Origin: Leptospiraceae bacterium
GTDB lineage: Bacteria; Spirochaetota; Leptospiria; Leptospirales; Leptonemataceae
Length of the DNA stretch: 64,000 nt
Direction: 5' to 3'
Assembly (NCBI GenBank): GCA_040217195.1
Contig: JAVJNR010000007.1
Coordinates: forward strand, 32,001 to 96,000
Under the pieces are notes generated by a model. The model ran no database searches. It had not been told where the DNA came from and saw only the letters and a program-made list of their open reading frames with translations. How positions within the stretch are numbered: the first letter of the stretch is position 1; each line of letters begins with the position of its first letter. Below are positions 13,290-24,850 of the stretch, in pieces. A program made the translations under genes and the position numbers.

Positions 13290-14363
13290 ATGATTAGAAG
13301 TAACTGGAATTTGACCATCAGGCTATTTTGCTTCGCTCTAGCTGGCACTCTATTCCTTGGCGTTGCACCGATTCAGGCAAGAAACGGATTTTCGCCCATG
13401 AACGACCCCGCGCTGCGGGAGTCCTATAAGAGTGCCCGTGCTCTTCAACGTATCTTCCGGGCCGTGTACGACTATGCCAGGCCGGGAGTGGTACAGATAA
13501 CCACAGAATCTCTGGAAGATCGACCTGCTCCCAACGGCAGCGGACCAGCAACGCCTCAATCCCAGGGCAGTGGATTTATTATCGATTCCAATGGATGGAT
13601 TGTAACTAACCGACATGTAATTGGTGACTCAAAGGAAGTAACCGTCAAGCTACACGATGGAAGAACCTTCACGGCCACGGTTCGCGGTTCGGACCCTCTT
13701 ACCGACATTGCATTGATTCGGGTTCAGGGAGCTGGTTCCCTGGATGCATTGAAAATGGGCGATTCAGATAATGTGAAGGTCGGAGACTGGGCCATCGCAC
13801 TGGGAAATCCCTTTGGTCTGGATGGATCCTTTACAGTAGGAGTCATTTCCGCTGTGGGCCGGGTTGGCCTGGATGCCAGCGGACTGAACTTCATTCAAAC
13901 CGACGCTTCCATCAATCAAGGAAACTCCGGTGGCCCACTGCTCAATCTGGACGGGGAAGTCATAGGAATCAATCGTATGATCCTTTCTCCCAGCGGAGGC
14001 TCCATTGGCATTGGTTTTGCTATTCCGACCAATGAAGTGCGCTATGTTATAGAAGAGATTCGCAGAAATGGCCGGGTGGATCGAGGTTTACTGGGTGTGG
14101 CCGTGGATGTGCTGCCGGCCCGTTTACGTAAATTTACAAACGGTCGAGGCGTTCTTGTAACCGGCGTGAAACCCGGAACAGGTGCCGATCTTGCCGGAAT
14201 AAAGAAAGGAGATGTAATCCTGAAAGTGGATGGAAAGACGGTAATCTATCCCGGTGAACTGGTAGGACTGATTTCCCGTAGAAAGCCCGGAGATAAGGTA
14301 GAAGTGGAGATCATTCGAAATCTCGAAACACAGAAGGTTACCGTTACCCTGGGACGAAGATAA
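13290..14363 (+). CDS. htrA: HtrA/DegQ-family serine protease (trypsin + one PDZ)
   Basis: Signal peptide; catalytic triad IVTNRHV, TDIAL, QTDASINQGNSGGPL; C-terminal PDZ. Confidence 0.93.
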   Translation: MIRSNWNLTIRLFCFALAGTLFLGVAPIQARNGFSPMNDPALRESYKSARALQRIFRAVYDYARPGVVQITTESLEDRPAPNGSGPATPQSQGSGFIIDSNGWIVTNRHVIGDSKEVTVKLHDGRTFTATVRGSDPLTDIALIRVQGAGSLDALKMGDSDNVKVGDWAIALGNPFGLDGSFTVGVISAVGRVGLDASGLNFIQTDASINQGNSGGPLLNLDGEVIGINRMILSPSGGSIGIGFAIPTNEVRYVIEEIRRNGRVDRGLLGVAVDVLPARLRKFTNGRGVLVTGVKPGTGADLAGIKKGDVILKVDGKTVIYPGELVGLISRRKPGDKVEVEIIRNLETQKVTVTLGRR

Positions 14364-14450
14364 CAAACTTTTTTAACGAATTCCAGGTTTCCGCCGTCCA
14401 ATTAATCAGCGAATGCCGGGTCAAGCAGGCCCTCTATTCGCAGGTACCCT

Positions 14451-14894
14451 GTGATGAAACCCTACGGTCTTGTGCTGCTTCTTGGAGTATCAGCGGTAAC
14501 TTCTGCCGGATGGAAGGACCTGCGCTCTGAGCCCCCTCAGGCAGGCCAGCCAGGACTGAATATAGTTTCTGAAAGCTACCTTCAAGAGGTTTCACACAGA
14601 AATGGGCCCAGCCTTGCCGGACGATTCACGGTTCATTCTAATCAGGATGGACTGGACTCAGGGTTAGATCTGGAAGCCCTCCAGTCTGGATTCTCCAATC
14701 GAACCAGGCCCACATTACCTCAAAAAAGAAAAGCAGATGAGCCATTCCCGGGTGGCCAGTTCTTAACAGAGCAGCCCTATTTAGCTTATTGGGAAATTCT
14801 CTTCAAAAATGGCTCCTTTCTCTGGTCTTTACTGTCGCTGGGCCTGGCCGTAGTCTTTGCAGGCTACCTGCTCAGAAACCCGGGCAATACCTGA
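14451..14894 (+). CDS. Small exported protein with C-terminal NGS-x-LW/TM tail
   Basis: Signal peptide (MMKPYGLVLLLGVSAVTSA); last ~45 aa align without gaps to the tails of the next two genes. Confidence 0.7.
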   Translation: MMKPYGLVLLLGVSAVTSAGWKDLRSEPPQAGQPGLNIVSESYLQEVSHRNGPSLAGRFTVHSNQDGLDSGLDLEALQSGFSNRTRPTLPQKRKADEPFPGGQFLTEQPYLAYWEILFKNGSFLWSLLSLGLAVVFAGYLLRNPGNT

Positions 14895-15057
14895 ATTATT
14901 AGCGTAATCAACCCGCCACGTCCTTAGGTTCCGGAGGAATCCAGAGGCGACATATTGGGCCATTCCAGGGGCACTAACTGTCAGTTGTACGAGTATGTAC
15001 TGGCTACCAGACTCATCTTTATTGCCCCGCTACTATTCAGGTCCCACTCGCAAAAAC

Positions 15058-15136
15058 CGTCACATCTAAGTATGAGAGCTCGATACCTTCTCCAGCAAGA
15101 GATGGTGATGATACGAATCGAGCGGGAGGATCTCGT
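15058..15136 (+). promoter_or_regulatory. Conserved upstream element / structured 5' leader, copy 1
   Basis: CGTC-N8-GTATGAGAGCTCGAT ... GAGCGGGAGGATCTC-NN-ATG; gctcgat pairs with atcgagc. Confidence 0.55.
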
Positions 15137-16543
15137 ATGAGAACATATAGTCAATTTCTGGCCCTGGCCTTGCTGGTAGCTGGATCTTTTATTCTGACAG
15201 ATTGCAAAAAAGATAAGGATGCACTGCCATTCTTCTTGCTGGGCAGCAATGCAGAATCCGCGCCTGGAAGTACTGTTACTGAAGAAACATCTGAAGGAAC
15301 GACGGTAACTACAACCAACGGTGATGTTACCGGCGAAGAGGAATTCGAGTTTCAAACATCTGAGACCATTGACATCAATGTAAATGTCACCGATGATGAT
15401 GGACCGGTGCCGGGTGCCACAGTCATCGTGAATGAAACTGAAACCGATGAAACTCTGTATCAGGGTGTAACCGATGAAGAAGGTAATGTCACAGGAACCA
15501 TTGAAGTAACACCAGAGAATGAAACCGTAACGGTCATCATTCAGGTAGGCGATGAATCCATTGAACAGGAAGTTTCGACTGATAACCTTCAGGAAATTAA
15601 CCGTGAAGTGGTTATCGACGGTTCCACCGGTGATTCCGCGATTGCAGATGCCGACGGAGATGGAATATCAGATTCGGCGGATCATTATCCAGATGATTCC
15701 ACCAGAGCTACGCGAGTTGTGGTGCCCAGCGCTGACGGACAGGTAGTTGCCTACGAAGACCTTTATCCCAGCCCCGGTGATGCAGACTTCAATGACTATG
15801 TCATAAAACTGAATCAAGAACTGGACCTGGATTCAAGCGGAAAGGTAATTAGAATTCGCGGTACCTATCGCCACATTGCTCGCGGCGCTGGTTACAAGCA
15901 TACTTTGCATTTGACTCTTCCCGGTTCTGGAACCGTAACAAGAAAGATCTATTCTTCCACAGGATCTCTTGAAAGCGAAGATAACCAGTCTGGAAATCTA
16001 ACCGGGATTGAGATTCTACCACGTAGCGATGGTACCATTAGCCAGAGTAACACTGTAAATGGACAGACCTTTCAGAGTGGAAAGTACGCTGAAATCGAAA
16101 TCGTGCTCAATGAAGCTGTATCTAGAAGCGAATTAGGACGTGCTCCCTTTGATCTATTCATCAAAGTGATCAATACCGGAAAAGAAGTGCACTTTCCTGG
16201 AAAATACATAGAAGAAGATGGATCCGATACCTATATGGATTCTAACGGATTTCCCTGGGCCCTGTCTGTTCCCAAAGAATGGAACTGGCCTTACGAAAGT
16301 CGTAACATTGCCGATGGGTATCCGGATTTTGAGACCTGGTATTTGTCCATGGGTCAGGAAAAGTCAGATTGGTACAAGAGAGCTCAGGATAGCTACGTAT
16401 TTCCCTATGTAACCAATGGTGCTCTGGCAGCCTATATCCGTGCCGGAATTGGTAATGGATCCCTGCTCTGGTCGATGCTGGCCCTGGGCCTTGCAGGTCT
16501 GCTGGGGTTGTTTCTTTACAGGGAAAAAACCCATCAGAGATAA
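15137..16543 (+). CDS. LruC-domain (DUF4842) lipoprotein, paralogue 1
   Basis: Lipobox ILTDC; acidic Thr/Val-rich Ig-like region; DADGDGISD Ca-binding-like motif; LruC signatures AYEDLYPSPGDADFNDYV, APFDLFI, GFPWALSVP..WNWPYE; C-terminal TM. Confidence 0.88.
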   Translation: MRTYSQFLALALLVAGSFILTDCKKDKDALPFFLLGSNAESAPGSTVTEETSEGTTVTTTNGDVTGEEEFEFQTSETIDINVNVTDDDGPVPGATVIVNETETDETLYQGVTDEEGNVTGTIEVTPENETVTVIIQVGDESIEQEVSTDNLQEINREVVIDGSTGDSAIADADGDGISDSADHYPDDSTRATRVVVPSADGQVVAYEDLYPSPGDADFNDYVIKLNQELDLDSSGKVIRIRGTYRHIARGAGYKHTLHLTLPGSGTVTRKIYSSTGSLESEDNQSGNLTGIEILPRSDGTISQSNTVNGQTFQSGKYAEIEIVLNEAVSRSELGRAPFDLFIKVINTGKEVHFPGKYIEEDGSDTYMDSNGFPWALSVPKEWNWPYESRNIADGYPDFETWYLSMGQEKSDWYKRAQDSYVFPYVTNGALAAYIRAGIGNGSLLWSMLALGLAGLLGLFLYREKTHQR

Positions 16544-16562
16544 TTATTATAGATGATCCTAT

Positions 16563-16587
16563 GGGCCCCATTCCGGGGCCCTTTCTT
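16563..16587 (+). terminator. Rho-independent terminator
   Basis: gggcccc-attcc-ggggccc-tttctt. Confidence 0.75.
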
Positions 16588-16708
16588 CGGTAACGTTAAG
16601 CGACATAATCACTTCCAGGCCTGTCACTCTTTGCAGTAGTACCCGGGTGAATTGAGGTGGTTTTGACGTGGATTTTTGCATTAATCCTAAGAATTTTTGG
16701 TTTTCCTT

Positions 16709-16790
16709 CGTCTTTTTATCGTATGAGAGCTCGATGCCCTATCGATTCGGATCGGGCAAGAAACAAACAGACTGAGCGGGAGGATCTCAA
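16709..16790 (+). promoter_or_regulatory. Conserved upstream element / structured 5' leader, copy 2
   Basis: Same CGTC-N8-GTATGAGAGCTCGAT ... GAGCGGGAGGATCTC-NN-ATG architecture as copy 1. Confidence 0.55.
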
Positions 16791-18209
16791 ATGAGAATAA
16801 ACAGTCAAGTTCTGGCCCTTGCCATTGTAGCAGCCGGATCTTTAATACTGACGGATTGCAAGAAGGACAAGGATGCTTTGCCTTTCTTTTTGCTGGGGGC
16901 TGATGCACAATCCACTCCAGGCACTACAACCACTGGCGAAACCTCTGAGGGAACGACAGTAACCACTACAAACGGTGATGTAACTGGCGAAGAGGATTTT
17001 GAATTTCAGAATTCCGAAACTATCGATGTAAATATTACCGTTGTAGACGATGACGGTGAAGTGGACGGAGCAGTAGTAACCATCAAAGATGGAGACACTG
17101 GAGAAGTGCTCTACCAGGGCGTTACCGGCGAAGACGGTGTAGCCAGCGGTACAATTGAAGTCACTCCGGACAACGAAACATTGAATCTAGTGATCGAAGT
17201 TGGTGATGAAGTCATCGAAGATACCATCGCTACAGAAGATGTTCAGGAAGTTAACCGTGAAGTAACCATCGACGGCTCTGCAAATACAGATACCGGCGTG
17301 GCCGATGCCGATAACGATGGTATCTCAGACGAAAACGATGCTTATCCGAATGATCCGGACCGAGCCACCATAGTGAAGCTACCTTCTGCAGATGGACTGG
17401 TAGTTGCCTACGAAGACCTGTACCCAAGCCCGGGCGATGCAGACTTCAACGACTACGTGGTAAAAGTCTACCATGAAATTGATCTTAACTCAGCGGGTAA
17501 GGTTGTTCGCCTCCGTGGCGTTTACCAGCACCTGGCCAGAGGAGCGGGCTACAAGCATACTCTTCATTTGAATCTTCCTGGAAGCGGCGATGTAAATCAC
17601 AAGCTGTATGATTACCAGGGGAGAGTCGAAGAGGAAATCGACGAATACCGTGCCAGCCTGAACGATATTGAAGTTATGCCTGAGAGCAATAAAACTCTGG
17701 GTCATAAGAACACAGCCAATGGACAATCTTACAAAGAAGGTAAATACTCCGAATTGGAGATTACTTTCAGCGAGCCAATGACCAGAAGCGAACTGGGACG
17801 AGCTCCATTCGATTTGTTCATCAAAGTGATCAATACAGGACATGAAGTACACTTCGCAGGAAAATACTTCGAAGATGACGGATCCGATCGATATCTGGAT
17901 TCCAACGGCTTTCCATGGGCACTTTCCGTTCCAAAACAATGGAACTGGCCTTACGAAAAATCCAGCATCTCAGAAGCATACCCTGACTTCGACACCTGGT
18001 ATCTGTCTCTGGGACAGGAAAAAGCCGATTGGTACAAACGAGCCAACGAGGCACATACTTTCCCCTATGTGACTGAAGGTGCTCTGGCTGCCTATATTCG
18101 GGCCGGTTTTCAGAATGGCTCCATTCTGTGGACATTGCTGGCACTGGGAATCGCAGGCCTTGCAGCACTGTTTTTCTATAGAGAAAAAAGCCACCGAGCC
18201 AACAACTGA
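16791..18209 (+). CDS. LruC-domain (DUF4842) lipoprotein, paralogue 2
   Basis: Collinear tandem paralogue of 15137-16543 with the same motifs and tail. Confidence 0.88.
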   Translation: MRINSQVLALAIVAAGSLILTDCKKDKDALPFFLLGADAQSTPGTTTTGETSEGTTVTTTNGDVTGEEDFEFQNSETIDVNITVVDDDGEVDGAVVTIKDGDTGEVLYQGVTGEDGVASGTIEVTPDNETLNLVIEVGDEVIEDTIATEDVQEVNREVTIDGSANTDTGVADADNDGISDENDAYPNDPDRATIVKLPSADGLVVAYEDLYPSPGDADFNDYVVKVYHEIDLNSAGKVVRLRGVYQHLARGAGYKHTLHLNLPGSGDVNHKLYDYQGRVEEEIDEYRASLNDIEVMPESNKTLGHKNTANGQSYKEGKYSELEITFSEPMTRSELGRAPFDLFIKVINTGHEVHFAGKYFEDDGSDRYLDSNGFPWALSVPKQWNWPYEKSSISEAYPDFDTWYLSLGQEKADWYKRANEAHTFPYVTEGALAAYIRAGFQNGSILWTLLALGIAGLAALFFYREKSHRANN

Positions 18210-18230: not shown

Positions 18231-18260
18231 AAGCCCCGCAGCAATGCGGGGCTTTTTTAT
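18231..18260 (+). terminator. Rho-independent terminator
   Basis: aagccccgca-gcaa-tgcggggctt-ttttat; GNRA loop. Confidence 0.9.
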
Positions 18261-20172: not shown

Positions 20173-20928
20173 ATGCATTCAAGATTCTGCTGTCTTACTC
20201 TATTATTCCTACTCGGCCAATGCCAGACTTCCGGGCCAGCTACAACAGGCCCTGCAGTAGCCACGGAACCGGTAGAAATGAGAGATTCCGTTCGCCTGGA
20301 TGTTCCGGCCATAACTCAGCACCGTGAATCACTTTCCGGAGCTGCATCGGTGGAGATGGTATTTCGTTACTGGGGCGAATCGAGATATTCTCAACTGGAA
20401 ATAGCCAGTGCGCTGGTCTGGAAGTTTAGAGAGAACAAAAGATTTTACAAAAGCCATACTCTATTTCAGATTCGCTCCGGCAAGACCGCAGACGAAATGG
20501 ACTGGAGTAGCTATCCTGGCAGCGGAACAGGCTACATTCGCGAATTCCTGGAGCCAATTGCGCCCACGGAAAATCATAGAATCCAGCACCTACCACGAAA
20601 CACCAGAGCCATTCAGGAACTGGAAGAGAAACGATTGGCGCAGCTAAAGGAAAGCGTCAATCGAGGCATTCCCGTTATTGTTCATCAATGGGTGGATTCC
20701 AGTCGCGAGAGCCAGAGATTTCGCGTGGTCACAGGATTCGATTCCAGAAATGGCATGATTTACTTGAATGATCCGGCATCTGGACCTATTAAGATGAAAG
20801 ACTCTGAATTTCTATACCTGTGGCAGGTGGATGAGGTCTGGCTACCCTATAACTCCATAGTTTTCAACAAATCAGATGCCAGACAGATTAAGCAGGGCGA
20901 ATTGAAAGTAGAGCTTGAATTACCCTGA
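20173..20928 (+). CDS. C39-like peptidase lipoprotein, catalytic residues substituted
   Basis: Lipobox LLGQC; paralogue of 24002-24850 but SLSGAASVEM (Cys->Ser) and SQRFRVVTGFD (His->Arg). Confidence 0.8.
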   Translation: MHSRFCCLTLLFLLGQCQTSGPATTGPAVATEPVEMRDSVRLDVPAITQHRESLSGAASVEMVFRYWGESRYSQLEIASALVWKFRENKRFYKSHTLFQIRSGKTADEMDWSSYPGSGTGYIREFLEPIAPTENHRIQHLPRNTRAIQELEEKRLAQLKESVNRGIPVIVHQWVDSSRESQRFRVVTGFDSRNGMIYLNDPASGPIKMKDSEFLYLWQVDEVWLPYNSIVFNKSDARQIKQGELKVELELP

Positions 20929-23950: not shown

Positions 23951-24001
23951 GCCACCAGCTTTTTCTCCTTGCAGCATTGGGGCTGGAGCTATAATCGACG
24001 G

Positions 24002-24850
24002 ATGAATTTAGCAAGGAATACTAACTCTAACAATTCCGTCATTGGCCTGACAATACGCTGCTCATCACTGACGTTAATTTCCATTCCACTGCTGTTCAGT
24101 CTCTTTGCCGGATGCGTTGCCGGTGTATCGGCCCGGCCAGCCTCTGAAACGGATTACTCTGATATTACCACCGGTACCGATTCTGTATCCAGACGAGTCG
24201 TTCGATTAAATGTGCCTCTGGTCCGGCAGCCCCGGGCCAAACTTTGCGGTCCCGCAGTTATAGAAATGGTATTTCGCTTCTGGGGTGAAACTGATTACGA
24301 TCAGTACGAAATTGCCCGGGCCATGGTCCTGTTGTTTCGCAATGAAAGCGGCAGGTTCCAGGACTCTGAGATACTGGTCCAATTACAACGCAATGCCCGG
24401 AATGGGGATGTGGACTGGAGAAAATATCCGGGAACTGGCACCTATCAAATGCGGGAATTCTTGAGCCGTTTTGCTCCAACAGTAAATCCAAGAATCAAAA
24501 ATCTGCCAGAGTCAAGAATTGAATCTGCGAAGATCCGGGATCGATTTTTTCAGGAACTCCAGGGTCATCTGGACTCCGGCTCCCCTGTCATCGTGCACCA
24601 GTGGTATAATGAAAGTAAGAACAGTCAGCACTATCGCCTGGTCACCGGTTATGACGATGTGCGTCGCATTGTGTTTCTCAATGATCCTGCAGACGGCCTT
24701 ATTGAAATGTCCTACGATCGCTTTCTGGGACTATGGAATGTGGAAGAAAACTGGCTGCCCTATAATAACATTGTATTCAATCGATATGCCCCTGGAAGGG
24801 TGGAAAAAGGCAGGCTCGACGTGAATCTAATTCTTTCGGTCGACAATTGA
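24002..24850 (+). CDS. C39-like cysteine peptidase lipoprotein (intact catalytic site)
   Basis: VPLVRQPRAKLCGPAVIEMV (Gln, Cys), HYRLVTGYD (His), FLNDP (Asp); lipobox LFAGC; start uncertain (23969/24002). Confidence 0.85.
   Translation: MNLARNTNSNNSVIGLTIRCSSLTLISIPLLFSLFAGCVAGVSARPASETDYSDITTGTDSVSRRVVRLNVPLVRQPRAKLCGPAVIEMVFRFWGETDYDQYEIARAMVLLFRNESGRFQDSEILVQLQRNARNGDVDWRKYPGTGTYQMREFLSRFAPTVNPRIKNLPESRIESAKIRDRFFQELQGHLDSGSPVIVHQWYNESKNSQHYRLVTGYDDVRRIVFLNDPADGLIEMSYDRFLGLWNVEENWLPYNNIVFNRYAPGRVEKGRLDVNLILSVDN

Follow-up and report, generated by a model that had tools for sequence, protein, structure and literature searches.

The window analysed here, a 64,000-nt stretch of contig JAVJNR010000007.1 (positions 32,001 to 96,000, forward strand) from the Leptospiraceae bacterium assembly GCA_040217195.1, encodes three tandem exported proteins that end in a common C-terminal tail. 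One is a small protein of 147 amino acids (aa) and the other two are LruC/DUF4842 homologues (Table 1). The three open reading frames (ORFs) lie where the original prediction had placed them, and the gap-free alignment of their 39-residue tails is confirmed. Against the two LruC tails, the small-ORF tail has 17/39 and 16/39 identical positions and ungapped BLOSUM62 scores of 79 and 70. Altogether 279 ORFs of this genome finish with a hydrophobic helix and a basic residue, and the remaining 276 score 20 or less (mean -3.9, standard deviation 8.1), so the likeness of the small tail clearly exceeds what chance would give. In Pfam/NCBIfam scans the LruC_dom/DUF4842 domain is present in both long proteins; because they are 67% identical from end to end, the pair counts as a single observation. 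A third LruC paralogue on contig C4 is tail-less and stops at the point where the tail would begin. No further carriers besides the three window proteins were found with three tail profiles in this 4.6-Mb, 93.7%-complete genome. In the AlphaFold model of LruC copy 2 (mean predicted local distance difference test score, pLDDT, 85), a beta-rich body is followed by a low-confidence linker (residues 430-434), a short motif-bearing helix (431-441), a break at Asn-Gly and a predicted transmembrane (TM) helix (444-471). RNA-library contigs from one marine study cover both lruC genes in 3/3 runs, with DNA carry-over being possible, and 161 nt of the small ORF (14450-14610) in 1/3 runs. The htrA gene, the 3' part of the small ORF and a downstream carboxylase gene fall outside this coverage, and such contigs can show neither absence nor expression level.

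Table 1 Genes and shared tails at the locus; bit scores refer to the tail profile A6 described in the text
Feature	Coordinates	Strand	Description or basis
147-aa small ORF	14451..14894	+	Signal-peptide-like start, short and lacking a lipoprotein Cys; body of low complexity; tail at the C-terminus
Tail of small ORF (motif, TM helix, Arg)	14760..14876	+	A6 profile, 39 bits
LruC/DUF4842 lipoprotein copy 1, 468 aa	15137..16543	+	Pfam/NCBIfam match; RNA contigs in 3/3 runs
Tail of LruC copy 1	16406..16522	+	A6 profile, 47 bits
LruC/DUF4842 lipoprotein copy 2, 472 aa	16791..18209	+	Pfam/NCBIfam match; model; RNA contigs in 3/3 runs
Tail of LruC copy 2	18066..18182	+	A6 profile, 51 bits; predicted structure
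HtrA/DegP-type protease (neighbour only)	13290..14363	+	Domain match; unsupported as a member of the system

Tail profiles were built in three rounds from 19, 33 and finally 54 tails, the last profile (A6) containing tails from within the class only. They describe a general form in which the motif S-x-L-x-[AG]-[YF]-[LI] is followed by about 10 variable residues, a TM helix and a cluster of Lys/Arg residues, with a single Arg in the small ORF. Among the 54 tails the motif columns hold L in 45, A in 41, Y in 34 or F in 18, L in 31 or I in 17, and S in 31, and a Gly within the TM helix is conserved in 47. The consensus first proposed for the tails was thus partly too narrow: its NGS-x-LW element is mostly genus-specific (the Trp is present in 10/54 tails, and NGS-x-LW is not kept outside the genus), whereas the L-x-A-[YF]-[LI] core with TM helix and basic residues is general. 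NCBIfam and Pfam contain no curated family that describes the tail, with only scattered generic matches to TM-plus-basic models, which agrees with the earlier statement that its motif was not recognised as that of any known signal.

The tail is a portable C-terminal module on unrelated spirochaete lipoproteins. It caps DUF4842/LruC, CBM60, VWA, Big_2, Calx-beta, LamG+DUF5018 and Big_5 proteins as well as proteins with no Pfam match, which makes at least seven kinds of passenger by Pfam. These passengers resemble adhesins and reach lengths of about 2,000 aa. BLASTP comparisons among four passenger classes found likeness confined to the tail region. Tails end 0-10 residues before the stop codon in verified loci, and a check of 19 weak matches yielded 14 tails, 4 sequences that are not tails and 1 that was unreadable. 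A lipoprotein start was recognised by a simple pattern in 67/94 tailed ORFs, most of the 27 misses being cut by locus ends or runs of N; four small ORFs of the window genus (g1) have a signal start without the lipoprotein Cys. LruC homologues lacking the tail are present in this and other genomes, and among 41 related genomes one LruC subfamily is tailed across both sampled families and another is tail-less. At E≤0.003 A6 matches 139/190 genomes of the class, mostly once per genome. There are three carriers here, usually one and up to four or five matches elsewhere (four verified in G151, three in G152), which does not bear out the idea of a genome-wide, many-target system. Clusters of tailed open frames of 1,000-1,900 aa in three genomes (G151:C24, G152:C53 and G154:C368) form the many-target end of the system.

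The module had been proposed for Leptospiraceae; it does occur in that family, but its range extends to other Spirochaetota. Applied to a 401-genome sample of the phylum, A6 found 37 places in 31 out-of-class genomes, including 31 full-length matches in 25 genomes, and in all 19/19 out-of-class loci fetched the tail ends a lipoprotein-like ORF (CBM60, LamG+DUF5018, Big_5, LruC and other passengers). The concern that matches might be confined to LruC was not borne out by the tail profiles. An earlier search of 1.84 billion proteins with profile A4, insensitive for a 49-position profile and preceding the broader A6, returned 22 matches, of which two were false matches to repeat proteins and 20 were C-terminal: mostly DUF4842, one CBM60, one 76-aa fragment of the CBM60 kind and three small ORFs. 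A homologue search with the LruC C-terminus recovered four close relatives only.

Co-occurrence of the tail with a membrane protease, which the original prediction had anticipated, is indeed seen. The gene after the tailed lruC in genera g20, g21 and g4 encodes an intramembrane protease of the PrsW family (PF13367) with a PilZ-like end; among the PrsW proteins beside tail genes, some have a cNMP domain in addition and others lack it. The same PrsW neighbour follows CBM60 carriers in other genera; the passenger therefore changes while tail and protease stay together. Altogether 39 non-redundant tail-PrsW neighbour pairs were found in at least four gene arrangements and in two PrsW clades, referred to as E-E and E-K. 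The target may precede an E-E enzyme, follow an E-K enzyme (g35), precede a small PilZ gene that is itself followed by the enzyme (L129, L136), converge with an E-K enzyme or precede one (L206). The strongest, independent test of this linkage is adjacency outside the class, from which A6 held no sequence: 18/31 full-length tail matches adjoin a PrsW gene (12 loci fetched, 6 judged from coordinates alone) and two more nearly do so. Further, 24/25 out-of-class genomes with a full-length tail also hold a PrsW enzyme. Within the class, 134 of 190 genomes have both tail and protease, 45 neither, 5 the tail only and 6 the protease only, a tally that is partly circular since the profiles were built from these genomes and related genomes are not independent. 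In G085 and G086 (both 99% complete) and in G040, the syntenic site between the same flanking genes contains neither gene, and the loci are free of N; the joint loss of adjacent genes can be a single event.

The only PrsW enzyme of the window genome is encoded on another contig (G000:C1:918423-920318) and combines PrsW, PilZ-like and cNMP domains. A quick tree, from which one of 59 rows was left out, sets the E-E group (PrsW-PilZ, 440-500 aa) apart from the E-K clade, which adds the cNMP domain. Residues E76, F111, E115, N116, R131, H139 and H175 are invariant in 40/40 PrsW rows, the own-genome row included. This enzyme retains the first Glu, FxxxEN, the His and HxxxD, with the second Glu replaced by Lys and the motif Lys by Gly, whereas the E-E group carries the complete set of PrsW motifs (EExxK, FxxxE, H and HxxxD/N). 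E-K enzymes are plausibly active by analogy, because the first Glu and both His residues are kept and the related glutamic protease MrtX, which cleaves MYXO-CTERM, has been modelled with the first Glu and a His bridging the catalytic water (PMC11980579). The PilZ-like domain is degenerate compared with canonical PilZ domains that bind cyclic di-GMP (c-di-GMP; alignment A5), and the PilZ of LIC_20173 has been called non-functional (PMC12943098). The cNMP domain of the own-genome enzyme retains the GE..R[ST]A cassette. No match to the PrsW domain was found by Foldseek or PDB sequence search. An Atlas search gave clusters of the PrsW+cNMP type only, one of them, mainly from Chloroflexota, with a score of 0.81, which is taken as a lead only.

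We hypothesize that the tail serves as a C-terminal sorting signal of a dedicated kind and that PrsW likely cuts it, and put the probability of this reading at roughly 0.55; tail and protease would then probably constitute an undescribed protein-sorting system. We infer cleavage, gating and the destination of the tailed protein as follows. Once exported by Sec and lipidated, the target would be tethered to the inner membrane by its two ends. The protease would bind the motif helix on the periplasmic face and cut near it, the cut being gated by the cytoplasmic cNMP or PilZ-like domain. Once cut, the protein, lipidated at its N-terminus, would be released from the inner membrane and could be transported onward. 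In this genome the enzyme would be the sole, unlinked E-K PrsW-cNMP protein on contig C1. LruC has been reported at the inner leaflet of the outer membrane (PMC5406399, citing Verma 2012), and a helix retained in the inner membrane would be difficult to square with that location. A bolder version, which we hold only tentatively, sees PrsW as a sortase-like, cyclic-nucleotide-gated enzyme that would release doubly anchored adhesin-like lipoproteins, LruC included, on demand, with the small tailed ORFs of the genus serving as decoy substrates. If true, PrsW would for the first time be seen to serve a C-terminal sorting signal, and a sorting protease with a fused second-messenger domain would likewise be without precedent.

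It should be noted that, besides the circularity of the class tally, a number of observations weigh against this reading. The motif has no invariant residue and is conserved by residue class, where the published description of such signals asks for an invariant motif, and two weak tail matches (G062, G114) are false. Of the 45 double-negative genomes, 32 come from six related families. Tail and PrsW genes lie apart in g1 (the window genus), g2, g10 and g22; only 8 of the 46 long PrsW loci for which no link was already established have a tailed neighbour; 28/52 protease-positive out-of-class genomes have no full-length tail at E≤5e-4; and in G051 (93% complete) and G335 (97%) a tail is present and no such protease was found. 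Two further genomes with a tail and no detected protease, G010 and G058, are only 75-78% complete. The looseness of the motif and the broken linkage in these four genera, together with the fact that most matches within the class are orthologous LruC genes, would suit a plain stop-transfer anchor derived from one ancestral gene, in which the middle was swapped by recombination and PrsW is a mere old neighbour. We consider this improbable: adjacency persists across orders, orientations, two PrsW clades and classes, the passengers vary but the helix that bears the motif, in front of the TM segment, is kept, and generic C-terminal TM proteins of this genome do not match the tail. In addition, none of the 11 PrsW loci of other types has a tailed neighbour.

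Other points that weigh against the sorting reading concern the enzyme. Only E-K PrsW-PilZ proteins, lacking the second Glu, were found in the examined g1, g2 and g10 genomes, and the mutation data on Bacillus subtilis PrsW concern a double E75A/E76A mutant only (PMC12943098). The closest solved fold to the PrsW model (pLDDT 88.8) is APH-1B (Z 14.8, root-mean-square deviation 4.3, 196 residues aligned), with Rce1 at Z 6.2. APH-1B is a member of the superfamily that is not known to be catalytic, and the modelled likeness fits membership in the superfamily, not activity. An uncut tail could instead dock stably on the PrsW membrane domain, with the outer domain (CBM60, VWA, LamG, LruC) acting as a sensor or co-receptor that sets PrsW activity on another substrate, for example an anti-sigma factor, or signals to the PilZ/cNMP domains. 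Such docking would explain the adjacency, the co-loss and the weak complex score equally well, and the E-K variant, the APH-1-like fold and the usual single target per genome all fit a scaffold role. PrsW-PilZ/cNMP fusions were interpreted by Zhang et al. as signalling peptidases (PMC3482391), and an anti-sigma substrate has been proposed for LIC_20173 (PMC12943098). However, the reported presence of LruC in the outer membrane (PMC5406399) and in extracellular vesicles (PMC10616267) is unexpected for a permanent inner-membrane complex. The size and adhesin-like nature of the passengers and the tripartite form of the tail, typical of cleaved signals, also argue against it, and no sigma or anti-sigma gene was noticed beside the pairs when neighbours were read by eye. 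We regard stable docking, the main alternative, as rather unlikely. The complex prediction itself supports PrsW-tail binding weakly: co-folding the window tail with the membrane domain of the own-genome PrsW scored 0.34, whereas the best of three controls scored 0.00; contact agreement between runs was at least 38% and the partner pLDDT at least 56. In the calibration, passes at ≤0.60 occurred in 18/157 solved pairs and 2/215 mismatches, the latter being both of the mismatches that passed.

A last group of candidates consists of other proteases. This genome encodes eight CPBP and three rhomboid proteins, which likewise counts against PrsW, and htrA is co-oriented and directly upstream of the tailed genes here and in 5/6 congeners (the contig of the sixth begins inside lruC). 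With only the E-K type of PrsW in the genus, cleavage of the tail by HtrA, CPBP or rhomboid might be considered. HtrA had been named speculatively as a processing enzyme, but its neighbourhood with lruC is limited to the genus: htrA adjoins the tailed gene in 0/9 loci of other genera and was not seen by eye in later loci, and the proposal is unsupported. Rhomboid (14/14) and CPBP (11/14) are near-universal in control genomes. The original prediction had recognised no sortase in the window, and neither sortase nor exosortase was found in the whole genome at its 93.7% completeness. Cleavage by any of these other enzymes thus appears highly improbable, and PrsW is retained as the candidate that would cut the tail.

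The proposed sorting system is best compared with JDVT-CTERM/MrtJ and MYXO-CTERM/MrtX, in which a CPBP protease serves a tripartite signal (bioRxiv 10.1101/2023.06.07.544157, PMC11980579). Both share with it the form of the signal and an enzyme of the CPBP/PrsW/APH-1 superfamily with Glu and His motifs, and in the JDVT system a dedicated target adjoins the protease gene, as is repeatedly the case at spirochaete loci outside the window genus. The tail appears, from its sequence, to have most of the features published for tripartite signals, and the requirement for multiple occurrence is waived there for dedicated systems (bioRxiv 10.1101/2023.06.07.544157). In contrast to the MrtJ/MrtX targets, the spirochaete signal has no Cys, its targets are already N-terminal lipoproteins and its motif is looser; the enzyme, a PF13367 and not a PF02517 protein, carries fused PilZ-like and cNMP domains. 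Accordingly, the tails do not group with MYXO-, JDVT-, Synerg- or CGP-CTERM: A6 has no Cys column, and MYXO-CTERM matches 3/54 tails with a best E of 0.12. The word "PrsW" is absent from the main texts of both papers, as are "Spirochaet" and "Leptospir" from that of the bioRxiv report. LPXTG/sortase, PEP-CTERM/exosortase and GlyGly-CTERM/rhombosortase signals likewise combine motif, TM helix and basic cluster and give weak generic matches to the tail, but their signature motifs are absent. LPxTG occurs in 1/54 tails, and 19/54 match TIGR01167 at E≤1 (best 8.9e-5; some may pass the cut-off); the window tail scores 14.9 against a cut-off of 15.9, such matches apparently arising through TM and basic residues.

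Bacillus subtilis PrsW, the site-1 protease for the anti-sigma factor RsiW, belongs to the same Pfam family and has the same catalytic motifs. The predicted spirochaete substrate differs in being a C-terminally anchored lipoprotein and not an anti-sigma factor, and the spirochaete enzyme is distinguished by two additional helices, by its PilZ-like/cNMP domains in the cytoplasm and, in one clade, by the replacement of the second Glu by Lys. Regulated release is also known from LapA/LapG/LapD, where a second-messenger-controlled protease sets adhesin anchoring; LapG is a periplasmic cysteine protease that cuts near the N-terminus and relies on a separate receptor. The likeness is one of idea: a controlled protease decides how an adhesin is anchored.

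The window proteins are homologues of Leptospira interrogans LruC, that is, LIC20172, for which an outer-membrane location is reported (PMC5406399, PMC8280789). Genus g20 probably comprises L. interrogans and its kin, judging by gene content. LruC and LIC_20173, which bear consecutive locus numbers, appear from this numbering and from domain content to be the tailed target and PrsW-PilZ pair of this genus. LIC_20173 has been described as a PrsW+PilZ protein, predicted active and assumed to act on an anti-sigma substrate; the available text of that study (PMC12943098) treats it separately and mentions neither LruC nor LIC20172. The words "transmembrane" and "C-terminal" are absent from the available text of PMC9901810. 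No paper linking the tail to PrsW was found, supplements and most subscription journals being outside the scope of the search. Tail and protease form a real, apparently undescribed module, which we place among dedicated C-terminal sorting systems. With this module LIC_20173, an orphan protease, gains a candidate substrate, and a candidate step is proposed in the trafficking of LruC, a leptospiral antigen that has been studied and is reported in the outer membrane yet whose gene encodes a C-terminal membrane helix. If the sorting reading is true, PrsW would join CPBP as a branch of the superfamily that supplies C-terminal sorting enzymes, and sorting would be linked to cyclic-nucleotide control. 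The layout of one enzyme and one target is directly testable.

Several loci show further variations of the tail-PrsW arrangement. Two g22 genomes carry a second PrsW-PilZ gene with its own adjacent tailed LruC (L114:2602-4107 in G096 and L115:2490-4817 in G120), possibly a mobile two-gene cassette; the tails at L114 and L115 are both preceded by LPxTG. In g35 a short gene that encodes PilZ alone, its RxxxR motif intact, lies between a giant tailed protein, a Big_2 protein at L136, and PrsW (L129:3596-3943, L136:3792-4223), and could possibly provide a c-di-GMP input. Also in g35, E-E PrsW-PilZ genes without a tailed neighbour stand head to head with a fliF-like flagellar operon (L130, L178-L181; gene names assigned by eye). 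A PrsW gene with an internal TAG adjoins a tailed LamG lipoprotein at G265:C8:45715-46719.

The small ORF of the window has no Pfam or NCBIfam match, as expected for a protein said to lack the LruC domain. A signal-peptide-like start of its own is indeed present, though it is short and was judged by eye. Syntenic small tailed ORFs of 163-174 aa with a signal peptide and a diverged tail sit between htrA and lruC in the congeners G002, G005 and G006, as single copies in G002 and G005; in G004 a full lruC copy occupies this position. The window small tail scores 79 and 70 against the LruC tails and 43-44 against the congener small tails, which places it nearer to the former. The body of the window small ORF resembles neither the LruC bodies (z≤0.2, 8 comparisons) nor the bodies of the congener small ORFs (z≤0.6); the suggested origin as an internally deleted LruC remnant is neither supported nor contradicted by this comparison. 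Between G002 and G006 the proportions of nonsynonymous and synonymous differences (pN/pS) are 0.048/0.055 for the small ORF and 0.004/0.156 for htrA; the body evolves near-neutrally, and signal and tail carry few changes. Possible identities of the small ORF are a spacer protein that evolves fast and a relic of which the ends persist. Within the proposed sorting scheme, the 147-aa protein would serve as a minimal substrate or as a decoy, or else its gene would be a lruC copy in decay of which the tail survives. Tails also end short frames of 102 and 126 aa at L226 (G151:C23:395096) and L093 (G124), respectively; the L093 frame appears to be a frameshifted lruC, and the L226 frame may parallel the window small ORF.

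Other observations concern the surroundings of the tailed genes. The roughly 200 nt upstream of the two lruC copies (14947-15136 and 16600-16790) are paralogous and conserved in congeners, with the conserved blocks GCGACATA, GTACC, AGAGCTCG and, ahead of the ATG, GAGCGGGAGGATCTC; as a putative shared promoter or leader they are consistent with tandem duplication. A terminator-like GC-rich hairpin with a T run lies 3' of lruC copy 2 (18232-18258). Further downstream, the window encodes two paralogous-looking exported proteins (20173-20928 and 23969-24850) whose pattern we take to be C39-peptidase-like.

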